A stretch of 44,278 nucleotides of DNA from the UHGV virus genome UHGV-0261880; one strand, given 5' to 3'. Of the stretch, positions 6,959 to 35,275 are shown in pieces. How positions within the stretch are numbered: the stretch's first letter is position 1; each line of letters starts with the position of its first letter. A program made the position numbers and the translations under genes. A model generated the notes under the pieces. That model made no database searches, was not told the origin of the DNA, and saw only the letters and a program-made list of their open reading frames with translations. The stretch comes from a virus.

Positions 6959-6987
6959 TTGCACACCCCAATATAATAGGGTACTAT
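6959..6987 (+). promoter_or_regulatory. Sigma70-like promoter TTGCAC-N17-TACTAT with embedded palindrome AATAG-ggta-CTATT
   Basis: TTGCACaccccaatataatagggTACTATtca about 30 nt upstream of the 7016 start; near-identical copies at 16871 (+), 29274 (-), 28141 (-). Confidence 0.5.
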
Positions 6988-7015
6988 TCACCCGTAACTT
7001 ATTGAGGAAATAATT

Positions 7016-7342
7016 ATGCGTAAATCAGTATTAGCTCTAGGGTTTATGTCTTTTTCTACCTTTGGGTCCCCGTGCGAACAGGTATTTAGTGAATCTGTTC
7101 TTATTACCTCTGGTGTACTTGAGAAAGCCGACCCTACTATTGTAAAGGCGTTTAAGGACTCTACTGTTCGCGAGTGTGAGGCTGCCGTAGAGGTTGGTAA
7201 ATCGGGCCTGCCTCCGCAAGCCGTAACATACTCTGTAATACGTTCGGTAGAGAAAAACGGAGACGCGTTTTACAGCCTACTGACAGCCACCCGTCTGCAA
7301 ATGGTAATGACTGGATGGGCAATAGGCGCAGAAAGTAAATAG
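7016..7342 (+). CDS. Small secreted/periplasmic protein (signal peptide), opposite-strand insertion in tail module
   Basis: 108 aa; N-terminus MRKSVLALGFMSFSTFGSPCEQ is a signal peptide; own promoter; encoded antisense to the surrounding tail genes. Confidence 0.6.
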   Translation: MRKSVLALGFMSFSTFGSPCEQVFSESVLITSGVLEKADPTIVKAFKDSTVRECEAAVEVGKSGLPPQAVTYSVIRSVEKNGDAFYSLLTATRLQMVMTGWAIGAESK

Positions 7343-7407
7343 TCGCCTTTATTTAAGGGAATTCACTGTGGTTAAATAGGACAAATCTTAAACACGAGGA
7401 AGTAAGC

Positions 7408-8538
7408 ATGGCCAGGAAGAAAATAACTGACGAACAGTTGCAGGAAGAATTGAACGCCGGGATGAAGAACGTAGACATCGCCCGTAAATACGGCATCTCA
7501 GACCGCGTTATTCGTATCCGTAAAGCGAAGCTGGCTAAAAAAGGCGTAGGTCACGGGCGTGACGTTAGTTACCTTGTGCCAGATGGCTACAAGATTAAAG
7601 GAACGTCGTCACTTGTGGATGAGTTCGGCAACACTAAGTTGCAATGGGTTAAGACAGACACCGACGCCGAACGTCAGGTCGAGTTGATGAACGCCGTAAT
7701 CGAAGGCATGAAGTCAGAGATTACCCCCGTTGCGCCTGTTAAAGCCGCCCGCGCTAAACGAGACGATAAACTACTCAATCTTTACACGGTATCTGATTTC
7801 CATCTCGGCATGCTGGCATGGGCCGACGAGAGCGGCGACGACTGGGACATGAAAATCGCGGAAGACCTGTTTTCTCGCTGGTTCGACGCGGCGTTTCAGA
7901 AAGCACCGGATGCAGGAACAGGGGTTATTAATCTGCTTGGCGACCTCGCTCACTTCGATAGCCTGGACGCCGTTACACCGGCAAGCGGTCATGTTCTTGA
8001 CGCAGACACGCGCTATCAGAAACTTGTCCGCTACATGATTCGCATGGTCCGCCGTGTTGTCGATATGGCGCTGGTTAAGCATAAAAATGTTCGCTTGCTT
8101 ATCGTACAAGGGAACCACGACGAGAGTGGCATGATTTGGTTGGCTGAGATGTTCAGTACGCTGTATGACAATGAGCCGCGTGTGTTCGTCGATACGTCGC
8201 CGGATGTTTACAAGATGGTCCAGCACGGCAAAACGACGCTGTTCTTTACGCACGGGCATAAATGCCGGTTTGAGGTGGTCGAACCCATTATGATAGCTAA
8301 GTTCAGAAAAGCATTTGGCGAAAGCGAGTACAGTTACGCACATGTCGGGCATCTCCACCATCAAAAGATTGTAGAAAGTAGGAATATGGTAGTGGAACAA
8401 CATCGCACTCTCGCGGCGAAAGATGCATATGCTTCCCGCGGTGGGTGGATGTCTGGCCGTAGTGCAAATGTAATTACTTATAGCGCCGAATATGGCGAAG
8501 TCGCACGTTTAACTATTTCACCGGAGATGCTGGGATGA
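7408..8538 (+). CDS. Calcineurin-like metallophosphoesterase with N-terminal HTH-like domain (SbcD/Mre11-like or phosphatase)
   Basis: 376 aa; motifs SDFHLG, GDLAHFD, GNHDE, HGH, GHLHH match the metallophosphoesterase signature; N-terminal ~50 aa DIARKYGISDRVIRIRK looks like HTH. Confidence 0.75.
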   Translation: MARKKITDEQLQEELNAGMKNVDIARKYGISDRVIRIRKAKLAKKGVGHGRDVSYLVPDGYKIKGTSSLVDEFGNTKLQWVKTDTDAERQVELMNAVIEGMKSEITPVAPVKAARAKRDDKLLNLYTVSDFHLGMLAWADESGDDWDMKIAEDLFSRWFDAAFQKAPDAGTGVINLLGDLAHFDSLDAVTPASGHVLDADTRYQKLVRYMIRMVRRVVDMALVKHKNVRLLIVQGNHDESGMIWLAEMFSTLYDNEPRVFVDTSPDVYKMVQHGKTTLFFTHGHKCRFEVVEPIMIAKFRKAFGESEYSYAHVGHLHHQKIVESRNMVVEQHRTLAAKDAYASRGGWMSGRSANVITYSAEYGEVARLTISPEMLG

Positions 8539-9023
8539 AAGATATTGTGATTTTCGATTTAGACGGGACATTAGCTGATGGTACACACCGTTTACACCTG
8601 CTGCCGAAAGATAACTACAACGAAACATGGGCGTGGAAGCCTTTTAACATGGCCTGTAAAGATGATGCGCCGATATATGACAACATTCACTTGTGCAACA
8701 CGCTGTGGCATACCGGGATGACCGTAATTATCCTTACCGGGCGCAGTGATGATGCCGAGGGTGAGACTCGTAAATGGTTGCGAGAAAATAACGTTAAGTT
8801 TGACACGCTGATAATGCGCAGCAAACACGACAACAGAAAAGACATCGTAATTAAAGAAGAGGTGTTGCTCGCCATCGGGCTGGAGAGAATCTTGTGTGCG
8901 TTCGATGACTCGCCAGCGGTAATTAAGCATTTCCGCGCCCTCGGTCTGACCACACACGCGGTTACTGAATACGACTGTAACGGGAACTCTACACACTTAA
9001 AATCACACGGGAGCGATAAATAA
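8535..9023 (+). CDS. HAD-superfamily phosphatase, resembling the 3'-phosphatase domain of T4 polynucleotide kinase
   Basis: 162 aa; N-terminal nucleophile motif IFDLDGTLA; ILTGRSD, TRKWL and RKDIVIKEEV segments align by eye with my recollection of T4 Pnk C-terminal domain; start overlaps upstream stop. Confidence 0.7.
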   Translation: MKDIVIFDLDGTLADGTHRLHLLPKDNYNETWAWKPFNMACKDDAPIYDNIHLCNTLWHTGMTVIILTGRSDDAEGETRKWLRENNVKFDTLIMRSKHDNRKDIVIKEEVLLAIGLERILCAFDDSPAVIKHFRALGLTTHAVTEYDCNGNSTHLKSHGSDK

Positions 9024-9577
9024 TGGCTAAGGTAATTATTCTTAATGGCCCTGCGGGTTGCGGGAAAGACACGCTTGCTATGGCGCTGGTAGAAATGGGC
9101 TTTGCGAAAGGAACTACCAGTTTCAAGAATCCAATGTTCAATATTGCTTTGGCAGCGTTAGGCCCGGATGCTTACCACGAATTTCTCGACGGCTACGACG
9201 ACCGGGCGCGGAAAGAAAAGCCAGAGGGTTTTCTCAATGGGTTGTCCCGTCGTCAGTTCATGATTGCCATTTCTGAGCAATTCATTAAACCGGTATTCGG
9301 TGATGATTATTTCGGTAAGTATCTCGCTGAAAACTTGCCTGACGGCGACGAAGTTTTTGTAGTGTCCGACGGTGGATTCGCCAGTGAAGTTGCCCCTATC
9401 GTCGCCGCGGGGCATGACGTGCGAATCGTCCGCCTCCATCGTGACGGCTATACGTTCATCGGCGATAGCCGGGAGTATCTGTACGATGTTAGTGGTGTAA
9501 AAGATTACGACACCTACATCATACAGGGTGACGTTAAATCGAACGTTATAGACATTGCTTTAAAATTAGGTTTGTAA
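9023..9577 (+). CDS. P-loop nucleotide kinase, dNMP-kinase-like (T4 gp1 family)
   Basis: 184 aa; Walker A GPAGCGKDT at residues 9-17; overall pattern resembles T4 gene 1 dNMP kinase from memory; translationally coupled to the HAD gene. Confidence 0.65.
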   Translation: MAKVIILNGPAGCGKDTLAMALVEMGFAKGTTSFKNPMFNIALAALGPDAYHEFLDGYDDRARKEKPEGFLNGLSRRQFMIAISEQFIKPVFGDDYFGKYLAENLPDGDEVFVVSDGGFASEVAPIVAAGHDVRIVRLHRDGYTFIGDSREYLYDVSGVKDYDTYIIQGDVKSNVIDIALKLGL

Positions 9578-9601
9578 GAAAAAGGCCCCGAAAGGGGCCT
9601 T
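9576..9601. terminator. Stem-loop AAGGCCCC-GAAA-GGGGCCTT with flanking A/T run (efficient mainly for minus-strand readthrough)
   Basis: 8-bp GC-rich stem; on the minus strand it is followed by TTTTTC; lies just after the kinase stop. Confidence 0.5.
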
Positions 9602-9614
9602 ATCACAGTAGGAG

Positions 9615-10109
9615 ATGATTATGGATTGGAATGAATTTTTCATATACGATTTAATTTCAGGAAGGATATTTAACAGAGTAACCCGGTCCGGGAGGGCTAA
9701 GGCTGGAGAGGAAGCAGGTACTGTCCAGCGAGACGGATATAGAAGGATATTTTTCCGTGGTAAATGGCATGCGGCGCACCGTATAGCTTGGGACTTAAAC
9801 AATCCTAACGATAAGCTAACCTCGTCAGATCAAATAGACCATCTAGACCATGACCGAATAAACAATAGACCGCTTAACTTAGCTAAAAAGTCCAATGCGG
9901 AAAACCATAAAAATATGTCAAAACAGCGTAATAATAAATCAGGAGTAACCGGAGTTTACTGGAATGCGAAAGAAAGGTTGTGGTACGCACAGATATTCAA
10001 CAATAACGTAAAAACACATATCGGGTGCTTTAAGACGCTACTAGATGCAGTTGCCGCGAGGAGAGTTGCTGAAAGAGATTTGGGGTTCCACGAGAACCAC
10101 GGTAAATAG
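9615..10109 (+). CDS. HNH homing endonuclease with C-terminal AP2-type DNA-binding domain
   Basis: 164 aa; HNH core HAAHRIAW...DHLDHDRINNR; C-terminal SGVTGVYWNAKERLWYAQI...GCFKTLLDAVAARRVAE is AP2-like; AT-rich relative to neighbours. Confidence 0.8.
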   Translation: MIMDWNEFFIYDLISGRIFNRVTRSGRAKAGEEAGTVQRDGYRRIFFRGKWHAAHRIAWDLNNPNDKLTSSDQIDHLDHDRINNRPLNLAKKSNAENHKNMSKQRNNKSGVTGVYWNAKERLWYAQIFNNNVKTHIGCFKTLLDAVAARRVAERDLGFHENHGK

Positions 10110-10110
10110 T

Positions 10111-10137
10111 AAGGCCCCTTTCGGGGCCTTTTCCTTA
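10111..10137 (+). terminator. Rho-independent terminator AAGGCCCC-TTTC-GGGGCCTT + TTTCCTT
   Basis: Exact reverse complement of the 9582 hairpin, placed immediately after the HNH stop; U-tract on plus strand. Confidence 0.55.
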
Positions 10138-11307
10138 CGCGTAGCTAATACGCTGTATTACAATAGAAGATTGATATTGATTGCCTGTGGACTGTCCTTC
10201 TATGCTCTGAGTGATTGACTCAGGTCCGCCAATCTCTGGCGTAACCGCCGTAAGCTCTGCGCGTTTCAAACTGAAAGACATAGCCCCGTTTACCCCCGCC
10301 AGAATAGAGTTAATCTCTACCTGCTGCTCGTTGATAAACTTCTGAATCATCGCCATGTCGTATAGCTTGCCGGAGATGGAGAAGGTGTTTGCCGCGCGGC
10401 TACGTTCCACAAACGCTACGTTAGTGTTGCCGAGTTCGAACTGCGCGGATGCGCTGTTATCGTTGGTGATGGTCAGACTATCACAACGCAACGGCGTAGA
10501 ACCGTCGAACACAGACACATCTACAGACGAGAACGGCTCGTCACCAAACGTGACAGAGGAGAAATCAGAACCAGACGGCGGCTCGGTGAGAATCTCCTGA
10601 CTGCGACCGATGAACGGGAAGCTACCTGTAACCATCGCGTTAACCGCCTGCTCAACGGTAAAACCTGAAACTTCCACGCCTTTAGTCAACGTGTACGCGT
10701 CAGTCCCGCCGCACTGGCCTTTGTACCAGGTAAGAATAGAGAACGTCTTACACTGACTACCAGTCTCCAGCTTATCCCCGGTCTTAGCAGCGGTAGTAAC
10801 AGTCTCTGCGGTCAGAGTGTGCTGGATACCCGTACCAGTGACAACAGTCGCACTTATTTCGGTTACGATAAACGGTTTGGCGTTATCGCCCGTTAAGTCG
10901 GTGAACGCAATCAGGTCGCCTACTTCAACGCCGTCGGTAATAAAGCTACCGGTGGAGCGTGTAAAGGTCTTGCCAGCCGGTGCGACGGTAATCGACAGCC
11001 CTGACAGCGAGACACCTGATTGCCACGTAGAGCCTAAAGCACCTGCCAGCCAGTCATCCTGGCTACGCGAGCTAAGTTCGATAGCGTATTCACCGCTAAC
11101 CTGTTTGTTACCGGTGCGGATGGACGTAGTTTCACGGCTGCCGTCCAGTTCATTGGAGGTCAGCGTGTCTCGGGTAATAGCGGGAACACCGCCAGTGTTA
11201 CGCAACGGCGACCAGACAGGGTTGTCTGGGGTCACGCCCGGGGTAACTTCCGCCACATAGAATTGCGCGGTATTCGCGCCCTTAAAAGGAGTTGTAGCCA
11301 TACTCAC
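10135..11307 (-). CDS. Major tail (tube) protein
   Basis: 390 aa Thr/Ser/Gly-rich beta-type protein, last gene of the head-tail operon before the chaperone pair; call by synteny. Confidence 0.55.
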   Translation of the reverse strand: MSMATTPFKGANTAQFYVAEVTPGVTPDNPVWSPLRNTGGVPAITRDTLTSNELDGSRETTSIRTGNKQVSGEYAIELSSRSQDDWLAGALGSTWQSGVSLSGLSITVAPAGKTFTRSTGSFITDGVEVGDLIAFTDLTGDNAKPFIVTEISATVVTGTGIQHTLTAETVTTAAKTGDKLETGSQCKTFSILTWYKGQCGGTDAYTLTKGVEVSGFTVEQAVNAMVTGSFPFIGRSQEILTEPPSGSDFSSVTFGDEPFSSVDVSVFDGSTPLRCDSLTITNDNSASAQFELGNTNVAFVERSRAANTFSISGKLYDMAMIQKFINEQQVEINSILAGVNGAMSFSLKRAELTAVTPEIGGPESITQSIEGQSTGNQYQSSIVIQRISYA

Positions 11308-11717
11308 AGCCTCTTGGTGAATGCAATAAAGTTAACTGACAATGGTCGTTTGGCCCATCCGTTTTCTACAATCAGCGGCCCCAGGCTAACCGATTGAACC
11401 TCGGCGCAGATGTCGTTACGTGAAAATGACTTACCTGCTTTAAACGCCGTGTTAAGTAAGTCTGCCATTTTATTGATTGGCGCGCTACCTTTCACCGATG
11501 CGTAGTTAATGTCTACCTGGTAAATACCGGAGCGTTGTTCCGTGAAGAACAAATCAGCCTGCTCTGTATCCGCAAGCAACATGTAACTTGCCAGATACGG
11601 GGTATCGGTTGACGTCGGCGCGTCGATATTTTCAAGCGCTACCCTGATGCCGTTGGTGGTTCCGAAGGCTACCAGCGGCACATCGAACGCTTTGGTTAAG
11701 TCCTCAAAGTAGCCCAT
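11304..11717 (-). CDS. Tail completion / neck protein
   Basis: 137 aa, overlapping start/stop with neighbours in head-tail joining block; synteny only. Confidence 0.4.
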   Translation of the reverse strand: MGYFEDLTKAFDVPLVAFGTTNGIRVALENIDAPTSTDTPYLASYMLLADTEQADLFFTEQRSGIYQVDINYASVKGSAPINKMADLLNTAFKAGKSFSRNDICAEVQSVSLGPLIVENGWAKRPLSVNFIAFTKRL

Positions 11718-12112
11718 TATTTCACCTTGTTGGCTTCTTCGTTAATTAGTTGCTGGAAGCGTGACACATTAGTCCTGACCATGCCTTGTGGAGCCTGTTG
11801 CGACCAACCGTACTCCAGCCGTTGCGCATACGGCAGGTTATTAGTCAGCGTGAACTCGCGCCAGTCGGTGGCTTTCAGTACGAAACTTGTAGCGTTTCCG
11901 GTTGCCGTGTTTCCTGATTTATCCGTAGCGTCTGTAGTTCCGAAAGCAGGAGTGCCACCAGATGCCATCCAGTTCATACGAAAGCGACCCGTATCTACTG
12001 GACTCGCATTTATAATAGCGGAAAACAGCTTGATAGACACCTGACGAATCACCTTCTCGGGATTCTTCTTCGCCTTTTCCACGAACTTAGAGACATCAAG
12101 CGCGAAACTCAT
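11717..12112 (-). CDS. Neck / tail-terminator-like protein
   Basis: 131 aa, translationally coupled in the head-tail joining block; synteny only. Confidence 0.4.
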   Translation of the reverse strand: MSFALDVSKFVEKAKKNPEKVIRQVSIKLFSAIINASPVDTGRFRMNWMASGGTPAFGTTDATDKSGNTATGNATSFVLKATDWREFTLTNNLPYAQRLEYGWSQQAPQGMVRTNVSRFQQLINEEANKVK

Positions 12113-12468
12113 TTTCTCACCTGGATAAAGTATGCCACGACATCATCGTTAACCATCTTCTTCTCAATGGCTACGACAGACCATTGTTCGCCGCCGAATT
12201 GTACCTTGTCTTCCATCTTCGGAACGACACTGCAATCCGCTTTAACAATCATGTCACCAGCCTGAATCGTCGTACCGTTTACCCGTTCCGCGTTTACCGG
12301 AACCGGTACAGCATTCAACGGCAACACTTCATCAGCGGACCAGACGTACTCCCCGAGAACTTCATCCCACACTTTCGAGCCAGCGCGAACCAGAGATACC
12401 GTGCTACCGAATTTGGTTAGCAAGCGTGTACCCACGCCTTGCATACGTTTACTGAAAGCGGTGCTCAT
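12109..12468 (-). CDS. Head-tail joining protein
   Basis: Track ORF 12109..12522 trimmed to the internal ATG (MSTAFSKRM...) that overlaps the stop of the upstream gene. Confidence 0.4.
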   Translation of the reverse strand: MSTAFSKRMQGVGTRLLTKFGSTVSLVRAGSKVWDEVLGEYVWSADEVLPLNAVPVPVNAERVNGTTIQAGDMIVKADCSVVPKMEDKVQFGGEQWSVVAIEKKMVNDDVVAYFIQVRK

Positions 12469-13082
12469 CAGGCGGCCTCCAGTCTCGAAATAACCAGTAG
12501 CGCAGATGGCGCTGTGCCCCATGCGGTCACGGTAGCGGCTTGTGGGTACACGCCTCCGAAGTTGCTTCCGGCACTATCTCGCATAATCTGAACGGCAAAC
12601 GTCTGGCCTGCGGTGGGGTTAATAACGACACGGGATTCAATCGGGATTGTGATGTCCGCGCTTACCAGTTTCGTGGCGGCGGGCGAGCCATACTGAGCGC
12701 CGTTAAGGAGAATGCGGGACAACAGGATGGATGTACCGCTTGCCCCCGTACGCCCCGCCTGTAACTTGATGCGGACGGCGTAGTTACCCGCAGTGTTGAA
12801 CGTAACCAGACCCGCTGCATTAATCATTACCGGGTCGGATGCACTTCCCTGAGCGGAGCCGAAAGTTAACTGCAACGCCGTATCTACTGCGGTAGGCGCT
12901 TGTATCACGGTCGACGCCGCCCGGAGAACTTCAACCTCTTTAACCCCCGGAGTGGCATAAATAGGCGAGTCCGCCATCTGCGTCATTACCTCGCGCAACT
13001 TCGCTGGGGTAATAAGTCCGGTCGTGTTATCGGGGATGTTCGCGCCGATAAGGGTGAACATCTCTGATTTAGTCTTTGCCAT
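12468..13082 (-). CDS. Structural protein of head-tail region, unknown function
   Basis: 204 aa ORF in the connector block. Confidence 0.4.
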   Translation of the reverse strand: MAKTKSEMFTLIGANIPDNTTGLITPAKLREVMTQMADSPIYATPGVKEVEVLRAASTVIQAPTAVDTALQLTFGSAQGSASDPVMINAAGLVTFNTAGNYAVRIKLQAGRTGASGTSILLSRILLNGAQYGSPAATKLVSADITIPIESRVVINPTAGQTFAVQIMRDSAGSNFGGVYPQAATVTAWGTAPSALLVISRLEAA

Positions 13083-13084
13083 TT

Positions 13085-13597: not shown

Positions 13598-13600
13598 AAA

Positions 13601-13780: not shown

Positions 13781-13816
13781 GACCTTTCCTTATTACGGCC
13801 CCGAAGGGCCGTTGTA

Positions 13817-16551: not shown

Positions 16552-16802
16552 GTTTCCCCTTTCTCGATAAGTAAAGCCCCGCCTTAAAGCGGGGCGCTAG
16601 TCCTTATCATTTAAACATAAAAACAGCGTAATCTCAGTAAACCCGTTACTTTTTACACAAGCAATAGAGTATGGCCCTTCCGAACGCGTCAGCGTAACTA
16701 CACTCAGGACTTACGTCCCGCTCCGTTACCTGCCCGCGCCGCGGTCGCTTGTTCATACTTCACAAGCTCAGGTGGAGCTTAGCACATTTTCAGTGAAAAG
16801 TC

Positions 16803-16818
16803 AACTATTCGAATAGTT
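16803..16818. promoter_or_regulatory. Perfect 16-bp palindrome AACTATTCGAATAGTT
   Basis: Contains the same AATAG/CTATT half-sites as the promoter-associated element but in everted arrangement; lies ~55 nt upstream of the 16871 promoter. Confidence 0.4.
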
Positions 16819-16870: not shown

Positions 16871-16899
16871 TTGCACACACCGATATAATAGGGTACTAT
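16871..16899 (+). promoter_or_regulatory. Sigma70-like promoter TTGCAC-N17-TACTAT with embedded palindrome
   Basis: TTGCACacaccgatataatagggTACTATtca, 30 of 32 nt identical to the 6959 element; ~30 nt upstream of the 16932 GTG start. Confidence 0.5.
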
Positions 16900-16931
16900 T
16901 CATTGCATCGAAACGAGAGGAGGGGTATAAA

Positions 16932-17246
16932 GTGAAAGATGAATTTAAAGGTACGAAAGGACCGTGGGAGTTCAAGAAAGAAAAAGGAGAGCAGGAATGG
17001 TTCGTGTTCCAGAAAGGCTCATTAAAGAAAATGTACGGCTGTACTATACGGACGCCAGTAGCCGAAGAAATTAATGATAAACATGACGCCGAACTTATTT
17101 CCTCGGCTCCGGAGTTACTTGAAGCTCTTCGCCAGCTTCGCGATTATGTTGAGGATGTTTGCGCGGTATCTTCTGATGATTGCCATGAAGACCATCCATT
17201 AAATCTAGCCAACAGAGCAATCAAGAAAGCATTAGGAAAGAAATAA
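16932..17246 (+). CDS. Hypothetical protein, opposite-strand insertion in head module
   Basis: 104 aa, GTG start with GAGGAGGGG RBS; own promoter and terminator; antisense to flanking head genes; ~42% GC. Confidence 0.6.
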   Translation: MKDEFKGTKGPWEFKKEKGEQEWFVFQKGSLKKMYGCTIRTPVAEEINDKHDAELISSAPELLEALRQLRDYVEDVCAVSSDDCHEDHPLNLANRAIKKALGKK

Positions 17247-17250: not shown

Positions 17251-17275
17251 AAGGCCCCATAACGGGGCCTTTTAT
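17251..17275. terminator. Bidirectional terminator AAGGCCCC-ATAAC-GGGGCCTT
   Basis: 8-bp GC stem followed by TTTATC on plus and preceded by AAATAAAA (T-run on minus); between convergent genes. Confidence 0.55.
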
Positions 17276-17736: not shown

Positions 17737-18812
17737 TATTCCCCTTTCAGATAGTCAGCGACACGTTTATCGAGTTCCGCCATCTGCTTAAGCGTGAGCG
17801 GATTCCCGAAACCATCTACAGATATTACGCGAAACTCTTCCGGTGATATACCGCTGTTGCGGAAAATCTTACCCCGCACCGGGCCGAGAGCCTGGTCCTG
17901 AAACCATGCCGGTTGTTGTTTCAGGAACTCGTAGTACGTGGTGTCTGCGCTTACCTGAGTACCACCATCTGCGCCTTTAGCAGCACGTTTTGCGCCTTTA
18001 TCCAGGAAGTCGAACTCCGAGCTAATTACCGGCGCAGTGGTGCTTCTGCACCCAAAATGGGCGGGGGGCATTGGCCCTTTACCTATTTCCCACGTCATCC
18101 CGTCTCTGGCCCTGCAAATCGTACTGGTACGGCTGTCCAGCGTTGACACCCACTCGTATTTCTCTATGATATCGTCGTTCTGGCGGTACGTCTCGTTGCG
18201 TGCTTCGTTGGACACATGGGACAACGCAGTGCGGATTACGGTAGCTGCGTTTCGTTCTGAGATATCCGCCAGCCCACCAGCGCCCACGACATTCTTAACA
18301 ATCTGCCGTGTGGTTTGGCCTTGTACAAAGCCCATCTTAACGCCGGTTACCAGGCGCGCGACCTCCGCTTCGCCCCAACCTGACATCAGTTTAGCGAAGT
18401 CAACCGGCTTGTAACTTAACGATAATGGCTGAAACTCAGCAGCGGCCCACACCTGCTCGGCGGTAGGTGTAACAAATTCCGCGTTAACGTTAGCCGTCAG
18501 TGTCTTAGCATTCCACTCAGCCTCATATGCAGCCAGTTCTTTAAGGTCTTCTGTCAGTTTTGTTTGCCAGTCACCTGTAAGTCCGGTCAGTGCTTCTTCG
18601 AGGTCGCGTAACAGTTTATTCAGTCGCCGTGTGGAGCGACCGTCGTCGCCGAATAGCAACACCTGCCGTTTGATTTCATCCCGCATTTCCTGAATGAACG
18701 GTGCAAGGTCTTTCACTTCTCCGGAAGCGGTTCGTTGCAGCCATATCTGGTGGCTGATTAGAGATGTAAGTAAGCTCATAGATACACCCTGTGGCGCTAA
18801 AGTTAATAGCAT
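17736..18812 (-). CDS. Head morphogenesis protein (Mu F / SPP1 gp7-like minor head protein)
   Basis: 358 aa directly after portal; size and position typical of this family. Confidence 0.65.
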   Translation of the reverse strand: MLLTLAPQGVSMSLLTSLISHQIWLQRTASGEVKDLAPFIQEMRDEIKRQVLLFGDDGRSTRRLNKLLRDLEEALTGLTGDWQTKLTEDLKELAAYEAEWNAKTLTANVNAEFVTPTAEQVWAAAEFQPLSLSYKPVDFAKLMSGWGEAEVARLVTGVKMGFVQGQTTRQIVKNVVGAGGLADISERNAATVIRTALSHVSNEARNETYRQNDDIIEKYEWVSTLDSRTSTICRARDGMTWEIGKGPMPPAHFGCRSTTAPVISSEFDFLDKGAKRAAKGADGGTQVSADTTYYEFLKQQPAWFQDQALGPVRGKIFRNSGISPEEFRVISVDGFGNPLTLKQMAELDKRVADYLKGE

Positions 18813-18848
18813 ACTATAAGAAAGCCCCTTTCGGGGCTATATGTGAAC

Positions 18849-24472: not shown

Positions 24473-24501
24473 AATATAATTGGTGTAAGAGTAATAGTCA
24501 A
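24473..24501 (-). promoter_or_regulatory. Sigma70-like promoter TTGACT-N17-TATATT (minus strand)
   Basis: Near-consensus hexamers with 17-bp spacer, immediately downstream of a strong terminator and ~35 nt upstream of the 24438 start. Confidence 0.5.
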
Positions 24502-24523
24502 CTAGTCATTGCAGAAAATAGAT

Positions 24524-28081: not shown

Positions 28082-28112
28082 CTTCCTTCTCTCCTCTCGT
28101 TTGTGTAAATGA

Positions 28113-28141
28113 ATAGTAGCCTATTCTATCTTAGTGTGCAA
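28113..28141 (-). promoter_or_regulatory. Sigma70-like promoter TTGCAC-N17-TACTAT with embedded palindrome (minus strand)
   Basis: Minus-strand reading TTGCACactaagatagaataggcTACTATtca; same family as 6959/16871/29274. Confidence 0.45.
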
Positions 28142-28255: not shown

Positions 28256-28289
28256 AAGACACAAAGCCAAATAATAACCTATTGACCTG

Positions 28290-28478: not shown

Positions 28479-28628
28479 ATCTCACCTCGGATTTGCAACA
28501 GACAACACACCAGCTTTCCACGCCCGCCACGCTAGACGCGTCTTAACGTTCAGGTACTCTTTCTTTGAACCCTTGTTAACCGGCAGACCCTCGACGACGG
28601 CCCACCGTTCGAATGCTTCTCTCATAGC

Positions 28629-29023: not shown

Positions 29024-29217
29024 TTCACCCCTTTGAATTTAAAATTGTTGCCGATGAGTTCTAAATTATCGCGTAAGGCGAACCCAGTTTTCTTTCTTAC
29101 CAGGCCCCATACGTCAACCAGATTATCCTGGTCATACTCGTTCTCGTCCTGCAACACTAATACATATTGCCCTCCACGTTTAGTTTTAGCCAATTGACCC
29201 TTCTTAAACATAACCAT
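29020..29217 (-). CDS. Hypothetical protein, first gene of leftward early operon
   Basis: 65 aa; ~30 nt downstream of the 29274 promoter. Confidence 0.4.
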   Translation of the reverse strand: MVMFKKGQLAKTKRGGQYVLVLQDENEYDQDNLVDVWGLVRKKTGFALRDNLELIGNNFKFKGVK

Positions 29218-29245
29218 CGCTCCTCGGTTTCGTTTTGATAAGTGA

Positions 29246-29274
29246 ATAGTATCCTATTATATTGGGGTGTGCAA
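29246..29274 (-). promoter_or_regulatory. Sigma70-like promoter TTGCAC-N17-TACTAT with embedded palindrome (minus strand), leftward early promoter
   Basis: Minus-strand reading TTGCACaccccaatataataggaTACTATtca, 31 of 32 nt identical to the 6959 plus-strand copy. Confidence 0.5.
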
Positions 29275-29708
29275 GAGAATAGTTACGTTGCCGTTGTGAT
29301 TCTTCAGGTAGGGTTGTGCCTTTATTCTTATTACTTGGTAACTAAAGGGCAGGCCCTAAGCCTGCCCAATAATCGTTACATTTTTACGGTTGCGAATCTA
29401 CGGCACTTTAAGAAAATCAGATACTTAAGATATATTCCGCCGATGGGAATAGAGCTTGCCCAGGGCAACCGGAGATACTTAGGAAGGAAAGTTACGATAA
29501 TTCGAATGTTCAGTAAACTGCCGCCTAACACTTCGCGTTGGGCGCTCGTTTTCGGCGGGTTTTACAAGGTGAACAGGAATCAAAGTAACTAAGATATAGA
29601 AGCACCTTAAACGAAGATTTTCTTAATGTCAATAGGTGCGATTATGTTTGATTTCCCATTATTCGCAATGTATACTTGGTTTCGTTAACTGATAATGGGG
29701 GTTTGAGA

Positions 29709-29879
29709 ATGACACAGAATGAAGTAGCCGAGCGTATTGGGGTTACCCGTCGCACGCTGAATAACTGGTTAAAGAGTGGGAAGTTCCCGGATTGTTGTAT
29801 CCGTATTATGGGCCGCCGGCAGCCGGGTACTTTCGACCCGGAGAAAGTGGAAGCGTGGATTAAGGAGAATGTAAAATGA
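29709..29879 (+). CDS. AlpA/excisionase-like HTH DNA-binding protein
   Basis: Track ORF trimmed to ATG (MTQNEVAERIGVTRRTLNNWLKSGKFP...); MerR/AlpA-type HTH pattern. Confidence 0.55.
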   Translation: MTQNEVAERIGVTRRTLNNWLKSGKFPDCCIRIMGRRQPGTFDPEKVEAWIKENVK

Positions 29880-30109
29880 CCGAGTTCCAGTCCCGCGTAT
29901 TTACGGCAGTCGTTTCATTAACCTGTAAAAAAGGGTCGTGCAGCGTTATGGACTTGCGCCGTAGTTATTTTAGGTACTATAGTTCCGCCATTATTGAAGG
30001 GTCGTTGAAGGTACTGGTTAAATCTGGTGTCGTGAAAAATGTTGGCGGGAAATATAGTGCTGTTGCCGAAGTTCGCGGAATGACCGCTACTTTAGAAGAC
30101 CTGGAATAA
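29876..30109 (+). CDS. Hypothetical protein
   Basis: 77 aa, start overlaps upstream stop. Confidence 0.4.
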   Translation: MTEFQSRVFTAVVSLTCKKGSCSVMDLRRSYFRYYSSAIIEGSLKVLVKSGVVKNVGGKYSAVAEVRGMTATLEDLE

Positions 30110-30167
30110 AAGAAAGCCCCGACGCGGTGAACGCCGAGGCTAAATTACTTGCTGAAGGAAATATAAC

Positions 30168-32435
30168 ATGTCCGATGTAATTTTATCCTACTCGTGGTCT
30201 CGTCGCAACGCGCGGGCGGAGAAAAAGGATATAAACGTCAGAACCACACACACGGCAACGCTGGGCGACCTGAAAGATTTAATCCAGCCGCTTGATGCTG
30301 TCCGTGACGGAATTAACCCGAAGACCGCACCCGGTTATATCACCGCCGCGTGCGACTCCACACACAGCACCGTAAAAGACCCGGAAACAGGCGACTTTAA
30401 GCAGGCGCGTAAAGGCTTCTTCTATCGCTGCGATGCGTCTGTAAGCAAATCGTCGCTGGCGTACCTGGACTTCGACAGCACAACGCCGGAAGAGTATCAG
30501 GAAGCGGTGCGCCTGGTTAAGCGCAGCCGCCAGGCGATGTGTCTCTACACCACGGCATCACATACCGACGAGTCGCCGCGCTTTCGCGTCGTCATGCCGC
30601 TGGCCCGCCCGGTTGAAGGTGGCGACATCATCCGTGTTCGCCATGGATTACTGGAGCACTTCTTCAAAGGCATGGGCGCGGACCGCAGCGGGTTCACTCT
30701 GTCGCAGCCGATGTATCTGCCGCCGGTTGGCTCTCAGGTTATCTGGTCGCGTCGCAATGACCTGATTGACCCGGACGAGTTACTGGAAGGTATCCCCGCC
30801 GTTGATGTTAGCAGCGCATCGGATTACCAGATACCAGAAGAACTGCGCACCGCGTTTACAGACGCGTTCGAAGCACTGGCGTTTGAGTATGGCGGTATCA
30901 TGACGCCGCGCGGCCTTAAGATGCCAGCTACACCGGAACATGCAGAGAACTACAGCGACCCGACGCCGCGGCCGGATGACTTCCTGCTGTGCTTCCCACG
31001 CGAGGGATATGAAGCGCCTAACGTAACCATGATTCACGACACTGACATCACGGCAACCGAAGGCATGTCACCGAAAGAGGTGTGGAAATATGCGTGCGAT
31101 GCGACCGGGCTGCCGTTCAGTGAGGTCGCTGAGGCCATCGGTTGGGGTGCGCGTGAATCAGTTTCATGCAGTCTCGACGACCTGGAAGACGATGAGGACT
31201 CAGAGGAGGACGAGTTACCGGAGCCGGTAAAGGCTGATTTCGTCGTAGAAGGGTACATGCCGTCGGATTGCATATGGGATATTGTTGGGGAATCCGGTAC
31301 GTATAAATCATTCTATACGCTGGGGATGATGTACCTCAGCGCCGCCGGATACCGGTTTGCAGGGGCGGATACCCAGCGTTGCCACCATTTCTATATTGAC
31401 GGTGAGGGCGGCGCGGCCACACGCACACGTATCGATGCGCTCGCGGCTAAATACGGCGAGGAAGGTAAAGATTATGTACATGTTATCGACATGGGTGAAG
31501 TCGGAAAACTTAAAAGCCTGATTAAGTTAATGCGCGAAACTGCTGGCGACGAGCCAATCGGTATGGTCGCGTTCGACACCCTTAACCAGACGCTGGCCCT
31601 GACGATTGATAAGTTCGACGAGAACAGTTCATCAACGGCGATTGGCATGGGTAAAGTTATTGCCATCCTGAAAGAGGTACGCGACGCAACTAAAGCCGCT
31701 GTGGGTGTTGTCCACCATACGCCTAAGGGTGGAAAGAAAGCCCGTGGTAGCGGGGCGCTGTATGCCGGTGTTGATGTGGAGCTTACAATTGAGCGCGCAA
31801 CCGACCGTCAGATAAACGTATACCACTCGAAATTTAAGCACGGGCCACAACAGAAGACGGTTGGTATGGTGCTGGAGTCTGTACAGTTCCGTGAAGCGCC
31901 ACCGCCGAAAGAGTACCGCGCGGTTGAGTTCCTCGGTAGCACAGAGGAGTACGGCACAATCGTAAACCTCGACCTGCCAGAGCCGCACAAAGCGCTTGTG
32001 CTGATGCCGTGGGGTTTCGAGCCGTTCAAAACTGACGAGGAGAAAGAGCGGGAAGAAGGGCTGACAAAGGAAGGTAAAGAAAATGTGCGTAAAACCGTAG
32101 AGAACGCCGTCAACAGTTCGGAGGCCACGATACTGGCAGCGTTTGAACTGGCGGAGGGGACCTACAACGGCAACGAAGGTATCACGGTAGCTGCAGCGAA
32201 TAAGCTGGCACAGTCCGACCCCAACGCGAAGGCGTTTAACTCCAAAGAAGCCATAGAACGCGGGAAGATCAAGAAAATGGTTGAGGCCGGGTATCTTGTT
32301 CCAGGTACTGACGAAAACAATCAGATAATTCCAGGACGTTACAGGCTGAACACCCGAATAACGGATAACAAGATTCCGAAGACGATATACGAACCAAATG
32401 AAATGCTGACAGTGACAGAGGAGGATTTGGAATAG
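30168..32435 (+). CDS. Primase-helicase fusion (N-terminal primase-polymerase-like domain + RecA-fold/RepA-like ATPase)
   Basis: 755 aa; acidic LAYLDFD and RFRVVMPL in N-terminal half; Walker A GESGTYKS then HFYIDGEGG and VVHHTPKGG typical of RepA-like helicases. Confidence 0.65.
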   Translation: MSDVILSYSWSRRNARAEKKDINVRTTHTATLGDLKDLIQPLDAVRDGINPKTAPGYITAACDSTHSTVKDPETGDFKQARKGFFYRCDASVSKSSLAYLDFDSTTPEEYQEAVRLVKRSRQAMCLYTTASHTDESPRFRVVMPLARPVEGGDIIRVRHGLLEHFFKGMGADRSGFTLSQPMYLPPVGSQVIWSRRNDLIDPDELLEGIPAVDVSSASDYQIPEELRTAFTDAFEALAFEYGGIMTPRGLKMPATPEHAENYSDPTPRPDDFLLCFPREGYEAPNVTMIHDTDITATEGMSPKEVWKYACDATGLPFSEVAEAIGWGARESVSCSLDDLEDDEDSEEDELPEPVKADFVVEGYMPSDCIWDIVGESGTYKSFYTLGMMYLSAAGYRFAGADTQRCHHFYIDGEGGAATRTRIDALAAKYGEEGKDYVHVIDMGEVGKLKSLIKLMRETAGDEPIGMVAFDTLNQTLALTIDKFDENSSSTAIGMGKVIAILKEVRDATKAAVGVVHHTPKGGKKARGSGALYAGVDVELTIERATDRQINVYHSKFKHGPQQKTVGMVLESVQFREAPPPKEYRAVEFLGSTEEYGTIVNLDLPEPHKALVLMPWGFEPFKTDEEKEREEGLTKEGKENVRKTVENAVNSSEATILAAFELAEGTYNGNEGITVAAANKLAQSDPNAKAFNSKEAIERGKIKKMVEAGYLVPGTDENNQIIPGRYRLNTRITDNKIPKTIYEPNEMLTVTEEDLE

Positions 32436-32463
32436 GTAAAAAGAAAGGGGCATTAAGCCCCTT
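32436..32463 (-). terminator. Terminator hairpin AAGGGGC-ATTAA-GCCCCTT with U-tract on minus strand
   Basis: Overlaps the stop of the XRE gene; plus-strand A-run 32436-32444 gives U-tract for minus transcripts. Confidence 0.5.
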
Positions 32464-32668
32464 CACCTAACGCCAGCCACTTGGCGTCTACTTCCAGCAC
32501 TTCCGCCAGTTTAAACAGCGTTGCCGGGCGGACGTCCTGAGTTACTCCGAGTGCAAGCTGATTAATTGCGCCCTGAGAAACTCCCGTCAGGACAGCCAGA
32601 CGGCGCTGGGAGATGCCGAGTTCTTTACGGCGCTGTTCTACACGGATGCCTAGTTCAGATGGTTGCAT
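32453..32668 (-). CDS. XRE-family (Cro/CI-type) HTH transcriptional regulator
   Basis: 71 aa; LGISQRRLAVLTGVSQGAINQLALG is a canonical HTH_3 pattern; TAAGGAG RBS. Confidence 0.7.
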   Translation of the reverse strand: MQPSELGIRVEQRRKELGISQRRLAVLTGVSQGAINQLALGVTQDVRPATLFKLAEVLEVDAKWLALGEGA

Positions 32669-32696
32669 GTCAATTACTCCTTAGTCAGTTGATATG

Positions 32697-32712
32697 TGAA
32701 TAGTACCATATT
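32697..32712 (-). promoter_or_regulatory. Operator-like palindrome copy overlapping the -10 (TACTAT) of the predicted XRE promoter
   Basis: TGAATAGTACCATATT on plus = ...TACTATTCA on minus, ~20 nt upstream of the XRE RBS; weak -35. Confidence 0.4.
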
Positions 32713-32732
32713 AATTATTTTAGAAAAGCCCA

Positions 32733-32761
32733 TTGACAAGTGAATAGTTGGCTATTATAGT
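32733..32761 (+). promoter_or_regulatory. Sigma70-like promoter TTGACA-N17-TATAGT with embedded palindrome AATAG-ttgg-CTATT
   Basis: Consensus -35, 17-bp spacer; 32 nt upstream of the 32793 start. Confidence 0.55.
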
Positions 32762-32792
32762 TAGCCCATACCAAACGAGAGGAGAGAAACAA

Positions 32793-33302
32793 ATGTTAGA
32801 GAAATTCTTAGTATTACTGGAACGTTTCGTAGTTGCACATGAACTGATTGCTGCAAATAGTGTGAAACGCCCGGTGCCGCCGGTTGAGCGTGCAGGTGAA
32901 ATGCTTGTAGACGTGTCGGTTACGGGAGAGGTACTTGAAGTCGACCCAGGCACTGGCGTAGGTAAAGAAATCCCGGTCGAAGGTGAAGACATCGTTGACT
33001 CTAAACCGGCGGAAGAAGAGAAGCCAAAACGCAAGCCGCGTAAAGCTAAAGTAGAGGAACCTACGCCAGAGCCGGAAGAAGAGAAAGAAGAGGTTGATTA
33101 TAAGTCTCTTCGTGACCAGATTCAGGCTATCGACGACGCAATTAACGAAGGTCCGAGCGATGCTGCGTGCGACGATTCCGATGAACTGCTGGAAGAGTTC
33201 ACCGGTAAGAAGATGAAGATTGCCGCGATTAAAGATGAAGACCTGGCTGAATATCTGGAACGCCTGACGGCAATCAAGAACAAGTATTTCGAAGAAGAAT
33301 AA
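32793..33302 (+). CDS. Highly acidic protein, first gene of rightward operon
   Basis: Track ORF trimmed to ATG with GAGAGGAGA RBS; central Glu/Pro/Lys-rich low-complexity region and acidic C-terminus. Confidence 0.5.
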   Translation: MLEKFLVLLERFVVAHELIAANSVKRPVPPVERAGEMLVDVSVTGEVLEVDPGTGVGKEIPVEGEDIVDSKPAEEEKPKRKPRKAKVEEPTPEPEEEKEEVDYKSLRDQIQAIDDAINEGPSDAACDDSDELLEEFTGKKMKIAAIKDEDLAEYLERLTAIKNKYFEEE

Positions 33303-33309
33303 CTATCCC

Positions 33310-33329
33310 GCGGCCTTCGGGCCGCTTTA
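33310..33329 (+). terminator. Hairpin GCGGCC-TTCG-GGCCGC + TTTAA (weak/partial terminator)
   Basis: GC stem with short U-tract just after the 33302 stop. Confidence 0.4.
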
Positions 33330-33345
33330 ACTGAGGGTCGGAATT

Positions 33346-33735
33346 ATGAAATACGAAGATATGAGTGATTTTGAAATTAATTGTGCAGTGGCAGTCGCAT
33401 TAGATTTGAATGAACATTTGTTCTTTCCATCTGGCGTCGATGACTTTGATAGTGATACTAATGATTCAGATATGGGGCCGGTGTGGCAAACACGAATGCC
33501 GTTTGTTAAAGGTTTTAGACCATCTAATGGTAATTTATTCAGCCCGTGCAACAACCTAGATATTACGTGGCAAATTATGACTCAAAATCATATATCGATT
33601 GAATGCGTTACGGTTAACCGACATACGTTTACGTATAAGGCGTATCACTCGGAATCGTTCACCGAAAGTACGCACGAAAACCCTCTCCGCGCAGCTATGA
33701 TTGTCTTCCTTAAAATGCAGGAGACAAAGAAATGA
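33346..33735 (+). CDS. Hypothetical protein, AT-rich gene
   Basis: 129 aa; visibly lower GC (~38-40%) than flanking genes. Confidence 0.5.
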   Translation: MKYEDMSDFEINCAVAVALDLNEHLFFPSGVDDFDSDTNDSDMGPVWQTRMPFVKGFRPSNGNLFSPCNNLDITWQIMTQNHISIECVTVNRHTFTYKAYHSESFTESTHENPLRAAMIVFLKMQETKK

Positions 33736-34004
33736 TTTATCAACTCTACCTTGCCGTGGACAGGCGGGATAACACAGAGGCTCTGTGGCTGTTGCGTGCG
33801 CCGTCGGGTGCGCACCAGATGGAAGAGATGGCGTACTTAGGCAAAGTACCGCGGCCTAAAGATATAGGCCGTCACGTGTCGCAGATTAAGCGCACGACAT
33901 TCGCCAAACCTGACTTTTATGTCTTCGAGTCGATGTATGGGTGGGCTATGCACTGCGACCATAAGACCAGACATTTAATTGACCAGTGGGAGAACAGGGT
34001 ATGA
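33732..34004 (+). CDS. Hypothetical protein
   Basis: 90 aa, coupled to neighbours. Confidence 0.45.
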   Translation: MIYQLYLAVDRRDNTEALWLLRAPSGAHQMEEMAYLGKVPRPKDIGRHVSQIKRTTFAKPDFYVFESMYGWAMHCDHKTRHLIDQWENRV

Positions 34005-35242
34005 TTCTAAAAGAACGCGGCGGTAATAACGATGTGCACTCCCTGTTGTCGCCGTCTGGGGCTAAAAAGTGGCTGGCGTGCAGTGCGTCACTGGCCTGTG
34101 AAAAAGATATCCCTAACACGTCCGGTAAAGCTGCTGTTACGGGGACCGCGTGCCACACTATAGCAGAGGTCCATCTAAACCAGTACATCAAAGGCACTGC
34201 ATTGCCGTTAGAGCGCGAAGTAGGTGCTTACGTGCTGGAAGAAGGCAAAGGTCAGATTAAGGCGCTAATCAGCCCGATGAAAGGCGCGGTACTGATTACG
34301 GCTGATATGATTGAGCAGGTTCGCAAGTACACCGACTACTGCAAAGCAATTATCGACGTCGCGACTTACGCCAAGCTGGAAATGCGCGTCAATCTTACTG
34401 AGGTATTGCATCCAGGCTATGAAGGCGTTGAGACGTTCGGGACTGCTGACCTTGTTGCCGTCCAGGAACTGGCTAACACCGACGAGCACATGCTAATCAT
34501 CGGCGACCTGAAAACAGGACGACATCGTGTCGAAGCGAAAGAAAACAAGCAGCTTATGCTTTACGCTCTCGGTGTCTATCGCCGACTCAAGAGACGTTAC
34601 AACATCACCGTGGTTCGCCTGGGCATCTTCCAGCCGTACGCCGGGGGCGCGTCGGAGTGGGACATCTCGGTTGAAGGTCTGGAACTGTTCGCTAAGTTCG
34701 CACAGAAACGCGCGCTGTTAGCTCTCGATGCGTATTTCCGTGGCAAGAAGAACCTGAAAGCGTCGGACTTCAGGCCGTCGGTCGATGGTTGTCAGTGGTG
34801 TCGGTTCTCAGAGCAGTGCGCCGCGCGTACAAAAACCGTTAATTCCGTACTGGCGGAAGAACTGGAAGACGACTTTGCGCTGGAACTGACGCCAGAGCAA
34901 CTCGTCGCTGAGTATGAGAAGTTGCCGTTGTTGCGCCAGCACATCGACAAGGTTGAGAAAGCGATGGCTGCTGCTTTGCATTCTGGTAAGAAAGTGCCGG
35001 GGTACAAGTTGGTTGAGGGCCGCCCTGGTAATCGTGCGTGGAAAGACGCAGAGAAAGTAGCAGAACTCTACGGCGACAAGCTGACTAAAGAAGTGCTTAT
35101 GGCGCCGACCGAGGCCGTTAAAGTTATACCGGAAGAAGAACTGAAAGGCTTCATTACCCGTAAGCCCGGTGCGCCATGCGTCGCAACGGCAGACGACAAA
35201 CGACCAGAGTGGAATCAGGTTAGTGAAGAAGATTTAGAATAA
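34001..35242 (+). CDS. PD-(D/E)XK exonuclease, Cas4-like (DUF2800-type) with Cys cluster
   Basis: Track ORF trimmed to ATG (MILKERGG...) overlapping upstream stop; GTADLV...IGDLKTG...QLMLYALG nuclease motifs; N-terminal Cys in LACSAS and C-terminal CQWCRFSEQC. Confidence 0.75.
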   Translation: MILKERGGNNDVHSLLSPSGAKKWLACSASLACEKDIPNTSGKAAVTGTACHTIAEVHLNQYIKGTALPLEREVGAYVLEEGKGQIKALISPMKGAVLITADMIEQVRKYTDYCKAIIDVATYAKLEMRVNLTEVLHPGYEGVETFGTADLVAVQELANTDEHMLIIGDLKTGRHRVEAKENKQLMLYALGVYRRLKRRYNITVVRLGIFQPYAGGASEWDISVEGLELFAKFAQKRALLALDAYFRGKKNLKASDFRPSVDGCQWCRFSEQCAARTKTVNSVLAEELEDDFALELTPEQLVAEYEKLPLLRQHIDKVEKAMAAALHSGKKVPGYKLVEGRPGNRAWKDAEKVAELYGDKLTKEVLMAPTEAVKVIPEEELKGFITRKPGAPCVATADDKRPEWNQVSEEDLE

Positions 35243-35246
35243 AGTC

Positions 35247-35275
35247 TTGACACCTGAATAGTTAGCTATTATAGT
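35247..35275 (+). promoter_or_regulatory. Sigma70-like promoter TTGACA-N17-TATAGT with embedded palindrome AATAG-ttag-CTATT
   Basis: Near-identical to the 32733 promoter; ~55 nt upstream of the 35331 start. Confidence 0.55.

Follow-up and report, generated by a model that had tools for sequence, protein, structure and literature searches.

Palindromes in the genome UHGV-0261880

The virus genome UHGV-0261880 (44,278 base pairs (bp), analysed over its whole length and called the window below) carries a recurrent palindrome with the core AATAG-N4-CTATT on nearly all of its recognisable promoter-like sequences. In the following, these palindromes are discussed as putative operators of XRE, a small Cro-like helix-turn-helix (HTH) protein encoded in the same genome. 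The window is a Kagunavirus genome (Guernseyvirinae): with many Escherichia phages of this genus, e.g. BEU35, SZH-1 and Bas76, it shares about 90% identity. An 852-amino-acid (aa) tail-protein open reading frame (ORF) is continuous over the junction of the window ends (1-2391 and 44101-44278), so that the cut falls inside the tail-protein gene. Since this ORF spans the junction, the window represents a complete, circularly permuted genome. Two divergent arms originate near 29.2 kb. Replication is encoded in the rightward arm; in the leftward arm, small early genes and lysis genes precede those for packaging, head and tail. Within the structural block two short cassettes are located on the opposite strand (7016-10109 and 16932-17246). 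Kagunaviruses are described as lytic in the papers on fBC-Eco01 (PMC9825357) and Golestan (PMC7203180), and neither an integrase nor CI is annotated in close relatives of the window.

Ten sites were counted on 11 promoter-like sequences, all of them ahead of genes. The promoters are sequence predictions, which were matched against the sigma-70 consensus (-35 and -10 hexamers, 12 positions).

6975-6988, + strand: putative operator over the -10 of TTGCAC(6959)-N17-TACTAT(6987); heads the opposite-strand cassette 7016-10109, which is closed by a hairpin at 10111
16887-16900, + strand: putative operator over the -10 of TTGCAC(16871)-N17-TACTAT(16899); heads the single-gene cassette 16932-17246, which is closed by a hairpin at 17251
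28112-28125, - strand: putative operator with perfect core over the -10 of the leftward TTGCAC(28141..28136)-N17-TACTAT(28118..28113); ahead of small early genes
29245-29258, both strands: putative operator in the leftward TTGCAC(29274..29269)-N17-TACTAT(29251..29246) and the rightward TTGATA(29235)-N17-TATATT(29263)
32699-32712, - strand: putative operator, imperfect (AATAT-GGTA-CTATT), in the predicted promoter of the XRE gene itself; -10 TACTAT at 32705..32700, TG at 32708-32707
32743-32756, + strand: putative operator with perfect core in the spacer and -10 of the rightward TTGACA(32733)-N17-TATAGT(32761), divergent from the XRE gene; 11/12 matches to sigma-70
35257-35270, + strand: putative operator with perfect core in TTGACA(35247)-N17-TATAGT(35275); ahead of the genes for a Gp2.5-like single-stranded DNA-binding protein and DNA polymerase
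39157-39170, + strand: putative operator with perfect core in TTGACG(39147)-N17-TATAGT(39175); ahead of the helicase operon; kept in 34 relatives
24493-24506, - strand: putative operator, imperfect (ACTAG-TTGA-CTATT), over the -35 of TTGACT(24501)-N17-TATATT(24473); ahead of small genes, terminase and head genes
16796-16809, - strand: putative operator, imperfect (AATAG-TTGA-CTTTT), over the -35 of TTGACT(16804..16799)-N17-TAAGCT(16781..16776); ahead of spanin, scaffold and capsid genes

The 18-mer TGAATAGTNNCCTATTAT matches the window eight times with up to three mismatches, compared to 0.21 matches expected from dinucleotide shuffles (shuffle maximum 2). The exact core AATAG-N4-CTATT is present seven times, including 39157-39170, against an expectation of 0.032 (500 shuffles). 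An equal frequency in shuffled sequence, which the initial annotation had named as grounds for dismissing the motif, is not observed. A spacing of four bases is the only one enriched between the half-sites AATAG and CTATT. When all 5-Nx-5 palindromes are counted without bias, this core is the most frequent one in the window and likewise in Bas76, K1G and the Salmonella phage Jersey. A PHIRE-like 18-mer scan yielded two clear repeat families, namely this palindrome and a family of terminator hairpins.

Seven of these sites had already been listed in the initial annotation as copies of one and the same element. All seven are present, but the one at 32697 contains an imperfect half-site (ATATT), and three further sites had been overlooked: 39157-39170, which is perfect, as well as 24493-24506 and 16796-16809 with one mismatch each. 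The promoter contexts TTGCAC-N17-TACTAT and TTGACA-N17-TATAGT, the identity of 6959-6990 with the reverse complement of 29243-29274 at 31 of 32 positions and a perfect everted palindrome at 16803-16818, all of which it had described, were found again. The everted palindrome results from an additional lone half-site beside the 16796 site.

One-mismatch cores at 744, 18805 and 28270 were not included, since they are situated within coding sequence, at its margin or beside a terminator and were taken as chance or doubtful matches. The core at 18805-18818 is located beside a terminator at the start of a head-morphogenesis gene, and the core at 28270-28283 beside a terminator near the end of a small early gene. 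In Jersey, a similar one-mismatch core (39668) adjoins the hairpin that is equivalent to the one at 28270. The cores at 18805-18818 and 28270-28283 may be weak sites or chance occurrences.

Conservation and promoter registers of the sites

Alignments anchored on the core were made for seven orthologous sites, with 28-39 Kagunavirus genomes from GenBank and IMG/VR. Mean nucleotide diversity is 0.007 in the left and 0.011 in the right half-site, compared to 0.123 in the four central bases and 0.155 and 0.133 in the 12-nucleotide (nt) flanks. About two further bases are conserved on either side of the core, which extends the conserved block to approximately 7-N4-7. The centres vary within each site (e.g. 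GATA, GTTA, GCTA, GGTA, TATA) amid invariant half-sites. At 32743, for instance, the half-sites are invariant in 39 genomes with a variable centre, and at 29245 they are perfect in 35 of 35 relatives. The imperfect half-sites are retained as well: AATAT at the XRE promoter in 39/39 Kagunavirus genomes, and ACTAG at the 24493 promoter in K1G, in Jersey and in 28 Kagunavirus loci. The 16796 site is conserved in K1G. Jersey carries the identical core at promoters in equivalent genome positions. Judged from these alignments, the conserved-variable-conserved dyad corresponds to the footprint classically left by a dimeric HTH protein.

The same alignments bear on the idea that the palindromes are relics of duplicated promoter-leader cassettes, which spread together with inserted genes and left the palindrome under no selection. 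The copies at 6959 and 29274 with their single difference in 32 nt would fit such a history, as would the leader AAACGAGAGGAG shared by several cassettes. However, flanks and central bases have diverged, while the ten half-site positions stay near-invariant over about 35 genomes and into Jerseyvirus. Moreover, promoters of the TTGCAC, TTGAC(A/G) and TTGACT types have the palindrome alone in common. We therefore regard relics as a most improbable explanation.

With respect to the predicted promoters, the palindromes occupy three registers. In the first, centred at about -12.5 and covering the -10, are the TTGCAC-N17-TACTAT sites 6975, 16887, 28112 and 29245 as well as the XRE promoter (32699). 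The second, at about -18.5, falls within the spacer with contact to the -10 and comprises the TTGAC(A/G)-N17-TATAGT sites 32743, 35257 and 39157 and the TTGATA-N17-TATATT promoter that reads rightward from 29245. In the third, at about -33.5 and over the -35, are sites 24493 and 16796 with TTGACT-N17-TATATT or TAAGCT. Compared between the promoter classes, the position of the palindrome with respect to -10 and -35 thus differs by 6 and 21 bp. The palindrome occurs in both orientations, and its slightly asymmetric flanks (TG...AT) are inverted between the TTGCAC-N17-TACTAT and the TTGAC(A/G)-N17-TATAGT type. Because it slides and flips while keeping its own symmetry, the palindrome is better understood as a separate protein-binding site than as a polymerase element. 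At 29245 a single palindrome serves two back-to-back promoters, the rightward of which matches sigma-70 at 10/12 positions. Five of the eight genome positions that score at least 10/12 against this consensus carry the palindrome. The spacer is 17 bp in all promoter classes. MerR-type operators, in which the dyad lies in a spacer of 19-20 bp, were rejected for this reason.

In fBC-Eco01, also a Kagunavirus, the same motif was predicted with PHIRE in seven copies at equivalent positions and ascribed to a phage-encoded RNA polymerase (RNAP), with the consensus tgAATAGTa-ccTATTat-T for seven 'phage RNAP promoters' (PMC9825357). The promoter equivalent to that of the 16796 site is listed there as host promoter HP1. 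For Golestan, seven PHIRE promoters are likewise reported (PMC7203180). In the initial annotation, too, a phage-specific promoter signature was offered as the alternative. Such a signature would be read by the polymerase itself, be it a phage RNAP or the host enzyme in modified form or with a sigma factor from the phage, and would need no dedicated repressor. The overlap of the half-site CTATT with -10-like hexamers (TACTAT, TATTAT) and the conservation of the TTGCAC-type copies across 32 nt are compatible with this proposal. Nevertheless, the ORFs of more than 700 aa encode only tape measure, helicase-primase, DNA polymerase, tailspike and tail protein, and no sigma or polymerase domain was detected in 30 scanned proteins, mainly small or unannotated ones. 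Since these phages encode no RNA polymerase, the label 'phage RNAP promoters' is wrong. A polymerase signature is also difficult to reconcile with the two orientations and three registers that the palindrome takes with respect to good -35 and -10 hexamers, with one site shared by two divergent promoters, with a dyad-symmetric conservation that leaves the centre free, and with the occurrence of the same palindrome beside CI-type repressor genes in unrelated phages (see below). We consider it improbable.

Two further observations concern the promoter regions. The conserved leader AAACGAGAGGAG is found between promoter and start codon at 16911-16922 (+), 28091-28102 (-) and 32773-32784 (+), with looser copies after the 29245 and 24493 promoters. 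It accompanies different promoter classes, is present in K1G and Jersey, too, and may be a common strong ribosome-binding or leader module. The segment 24491-24508 (TGACTAGTTGACTATTAC) fits ACTAG-N4-CTAGT, the half-site arrangement of the E. coli trp operator, at most positions; this is a lead or a coincidence only.

XRE and HTH_17 as candidate binding proteins

Among the proteins scanned, only two are recognisable as DNA-binding proteins, and both had been named as candidate regulators in the initial annotation. No regulator, sigma or polymerase domain was found in twenty other small proteins scanned. The comparative evidence described in this section speaks for the first candidate and against the second.

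32453-32668, - strand: XRE gene, encoding a 71-aa Cro-like HTH protein; proposed operator-binding repressor
29709-29879, + strand: HTH_17 gene ('AlpA-like' in the initial annotation), encoding a 56-67-aa protein; first gene of the rightward arm

XRE matches the Pfam family HTH_3 (PF01381) with E=2.3e-12 and 47 bits (cut-off 23). Its best matches among solved structures are 434 Cro and the N-terminal domain of 434 repressor (E~1e-5, residues 6-68); the N-terminal domain of P22 c2 is a weak sequence match (E=0.006). The protein is conserved to 94-100% in Kagunavirus, 48% in Jerseyvirus and 41-43% in Cornellvirus. The sites 32699-32712 and 32743-32756 are located 31 and 75 bp upstream of its start, an arrangement suited to autoregulation. 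At the former, the G-to-T mismatch (AATAT) generates a TGn extended -10 upstream of TACTAT, where the -35 is poor. One base within 32700-32708 thus seems to weaken the predicted operator while strengthening the predicted XRE promoter. Phage homologues of XRE outside the subfamily are lambdoid cro genes, which adjoin 14-bp ACAG-N6-CTGT dyads. A complete lambdoid immunity region with a bistable cI-cro switch was rejected, since CI and lysogeny genes are missing and the divergent neighbour of XRE (a protein of ~166-184 aa) has no Pfam match. In coarse RNA-seq data for the Kagunavirus K1B4, one HTH gene, not specified further, is among only four early genes (PMC12645636). This is compatible with the model proposed here and lends it weak support.

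The operator type itself can be traced beyond the subfamily. By protein homology alone, 23 loci from outside the Guernseyvirinae were retrieved from IMG/VR (13 clusters at 90% identity, GC content 50-63%). All 23 encode the recognition helix GV[ST]QG.I.Q, and in all 23 the gene is preceded, at a distance of 30-92 bp, by an exact A[AT]TAG-N4-CTA[AT]T; in total, 62 matches were found in 130 kb of these loci against 0.155 expected. In most of them a second operator pair follows 0.6-2.2 kb downstream of the CI gene start. These homologues belong to the CI-type repressors, are full-length and measure about 130-240 aa; most have a C-terminal motif that, by its sequence, is of the cleavage type (GDSME-like). 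They include 'repressor protein C' of Burkholderia phage KL4 and RdgA of Erwinia phage phiEt88. Their N-terminal HTH domains are 40-43% identical to XRE over the aligned region, and their small divergent partner contains a matching helix, GVTQ[GS]AIS[QH]. Homologues with other recognition helices, i.e. those of 26 bacterial loci and of the phages IdasGreatGrand and BTP1, lack the motif. The bacterial loci stem from a scan of bacterial contigs with the XRE alignment and mostly encode proteins that share only a C-terminal LFKxAEVLEV; hence, they serve as a negative control only. Since 23/23 loci carry the motif and homologues with other helices do not, this operator type travels with this HTH clade, and A[AT]TAG-N4-CTA[AT]T can be assigned as operator to a CI/Cro clade of temperate phages in other hosts.

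In most of these loci the members of the second pair are exactly 25 bp apart from start to start, e.g. ATTAGTTTCCTATT followed by ATTAGCGTTCTAAT. The pair looks like the second operator cluster of those immunity regions. Cross-immunity with resident lambdoid prophages was considered and rejected, because the CI homologues from E. coli and Salmonella (IdasGreatGrand, BTP1) have different helices and no motif.

Closer to the window, the Cornellviruses VSiP and TS6 are informative. They have kept XRE and lack HTH_17, and a related palindrome, ATATTA-N6-TAATAT (similar to ATTAG-N4-CTAAT), is present at promoters in equivalent positions. Compared by recognition helix, with the contact positions of 434 as reference, Jerseyvirus and Cornellvirus are alike and Kagunavirus differs; compared by motif, Kagunavirus and Jerseyvirus are alike and Cornellvirus differs. 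This discrepancy, met when motif changes were to be linked to helix changes by a simple code across the genera, is partly resolved by the temperate relatives. The second position of the half-site appears to be tolerant, because they mix AATAG and ATTAG within one switch region.

For the second candidate, the designation 'AlpA-like' could not be maintained. The protein matches only the generic family HTH_17 (PF12728, E=3e-7), while Phage_AlpA (PF05930) is absent at E<=0.01; a comparison with the PDB gave no significant match and no AlpA chain at E<=10. HTH_17 could nevertheless bind the same operators in place of XRE. All 443 records of the protein, none below 60% identity, come from Kagunavirus and Jerseyvirus, a range that matches that of the exact AATAG-N4-CTATT core. 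The HTH_17 gene also lies downstream of the bidirectional 29245 operator, so that autoregulation is possible. On the other hand, Cornellvirus has a related promoter palindrome without HTH_17. The temperate loci with the same operator type all encode an HTH protein of the XRE type, and no homologue of HTH_17 was present in the subset of the 23 loci that was checked. Furthermore, the protein has no dimerisation region and no significant relative of solved structure. Its position next to p77 and helicase-primase suggests a role in replication; some records call the neighbour 'replication protein'. Binding of the operators by HTH_17 is therefore unlikely in our opinion.

A related proposal is that the palindromes are loading sites for a processive antiterminator of the Q/AlpA type, which would allow transcription to read through the hairpin terminators. 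AlpA binds between -35 and -10 of its target promoters (PMC7969949), the TTGAC(A/G)-N17-TATAGT sites occupy exactly this spacer, and strong terminators are numerous in the genome. Yet only the four TTGAxx-N17-TATAGT/TATATT promoters have the palindrome between -35 and -10. The remaining sites overlap one of these hexamers, where a bound protein should block initiation. Shifts of 6 and 21 bp are incompatible with a fixed contact to a paused polymerase, and the AlpA element, GGGACG-N5-GGTA, is not palindromic. HTH_17, moreover, matches neither Phage_AlpA nor an AlpA chain. The probability of such a loading site is very low.

Several points weigh against XRE as the binding protein or as a general repressor. 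The main one is that HTH_17 is conserved to 82-89% between the two genera that share the core, compared to 48% for XRE, and thus tracks the core better within the subfamily. Consistent with this, Kagunavirus and Jerseyvirus share the operator core, although the recognition helices of their XRE proteins differ at four of seven positions (SQGAINQ and SQSLITH). The association in temperate phages is a correlation, and many of the loci share the ancestry of their switch region. The TTGCAC-N17-TACTAT promoters match the sigma-70 consensus at only 7/12 positions, and their status as promoters is the least secure. Finally, repression of the structural-gene promoters, too, would be an odd design; the answer offered below, graded affinities, is purely inferential.

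Some neighbouring features are worth mentioning. Between the bidirectional promoter at 29245 and the HTH_17 gene lies a noncoding region of about 450 nt (29264-29708) with hairpins at 29347-29367 and 29522-29544 and with the short repeats AGATACTTARGA (29419, 29473) and TAAGATATA (29426, 29590). A repeat search in this region revealed nothing convincing, and an Rfam scan of the whole window gave no match. This noncoding region may serve as an origin of replication or as a regulatory leader. In the Salmonella virus VSiP a 291-bp intergenic region 3' of the helicase-primase gene (37129-37419) contains dense G-rich repeats (GGGGGAG-like) and two copies of GTGAATAGTTAT; it is a possible origin. 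Cornellvirus has its helicase-primase gene on the strand of XRE, and p77 is missing along with HTH_17. The second repeat family of the window consists of four near-identical bidirectional hairpin terminators, AAGGCCCC-N4/5-GGGGCCTT, at 9582-9601, 10111-10130, 17251-17271 and 41965-41984. Each of them closes or adjoins one of the opposite-strand cassettes or the end of the rightward arm; in Jersey and VSiP, too, this family ranks as the other top repeat.

Proposed regulation and comparison with known systems

Taken together, we propose with a probability of roughly 70% that the palindromes are 14-bp operators of XRE, which would act as an orphan Cro-like repressor and turn down most phage promoters. 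The sequence-level features of a Cro/CI-type operator system are present: an HTH_3 domain, dyad sites with a freer centre, overlap with the predicted core promoters and association with the HTH clade. The suggestion in the initial annotation that one regulator gates many transcription units, including both opposite-strand cassettes, is supported by the dyad footprint, by the three registers and by the palindromes beside XRE homologues.

The proposed mechanism is derived from sequence throughout, from promoter activity and transcription starts to XRE binding, the sign of regulation, graded affinities and temporal order. [quoted passage not shown] XRE, a free-standing homologue of the CI DNA-binding domain, would be expressed from its own extended -10 promoter and bind as a dimer to operators centred at about -12.5, -18.5 or -33.5. 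Because each of these positions covers the -10 or the -35, the polymerase would be blocked. Perfect operators are found at the predicted promoters of the early small genes, of three replication operons and of the two opposite-strand cassettes. Conserved imperfect operators are located at the XRE promoter, where they would cause weak autorepression, and at two promoters ahead of packaging, head and lysis-accessory genes. If operator perfection is graded in this manner, rising levels of XRE would shut down early and middle transcription first, limit XRE itself and spare late transcription longest.

A more far-reaching possibility is that XRE, beyond shutting off early genes, is a genome-wide brake over essentially every promoter of a phage regarded as strictly lytic, which would confer superinfection immunity between Kagunavirus and Jerseyvirus or even permit a transient silent (carrier) state without integrase and CI. 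We consider this doubtful. If true, a cell filled with XRE would silence incoming genomes that bear the same operators, which matters for cocktails of therapy phages.

In a literature search no paper on operators or a repressor regulon in Guernseyvirinae was found. Compared to the papers on fBC-Eco01 and Golestan, the interpretation as operators and three additional sites are new, whereas the motif itself had already been published. Kagunavirus and Jerseyvirus are among the most frequently isolated candidates for phage therapy against E. coli and Salmonella, and a preprint on the BASEL collection mentions that they have been proposed as small chassis for synthetic biology. For these phages our interpretation provides a testable map of 10 operators, 11 promoters and one candidate regulator gene. 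It would explain how the cassettes inserted on the opposite strand are integrated into the phage programme, predicts cross-regulation of co-infecting relatives and points to a compact repressor/operator pair for engineering. The mechanism is classical; the advance lies in annotation and understanding rather than in a new principle.

Among known systems, 434 Cro and 434 repressor are the closest in structure. XRE has the same length as 434 Cro (71 aa), with which it forms its best solved-structure match. In both systems the operators, putative in our case, are 14-bp dyads with conserved outer bases and a variable centre, positioned over a -10 or -35, and the regulator gene lies beside its own operators. 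In contrast to 434, the half-site is AATAG instead of that in ACAA-N6-TTGT, and a partner CI and a lysogeny module are missing. Moreover, about ten promoters throughout the genome would be addressed here, compared to two operator clusters in 434. The P22 c2/Cro operators are 18 bp long (ATTTAAG-N4-CTTAAAT) and resemble the present sites in their 5-N4-5 geometry, with two conserved flanking bases and four central bases that are not contacted. Half-site and recognition helix differ.

The temperate CI-type repressors (KL4, RdgA of phiEt88 and the 23 IMG/VR relatives) share the helix type of XRE and the operator type proposed for it. They are, however, larger (about 130-240 aa), have a divergent Cro partner and act on one or two operator clusters, whereas XRE consists of the DNA-binding domain alone and belongs to a virulent phage. 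In the AlpA system of Pseudomonas aeruginosa (PMC7969949) the site of a small HTH protein also lies between -35 and -10. That element is non-palindromic, has a fixed register and acts positively by antitermination, and the HTH_17 protein has no detectable relationship to AlpA. In its function, XRE would act as Cro of the lambdoid phages does on PL and PR, but spread over the whole genome of a phage without CI.

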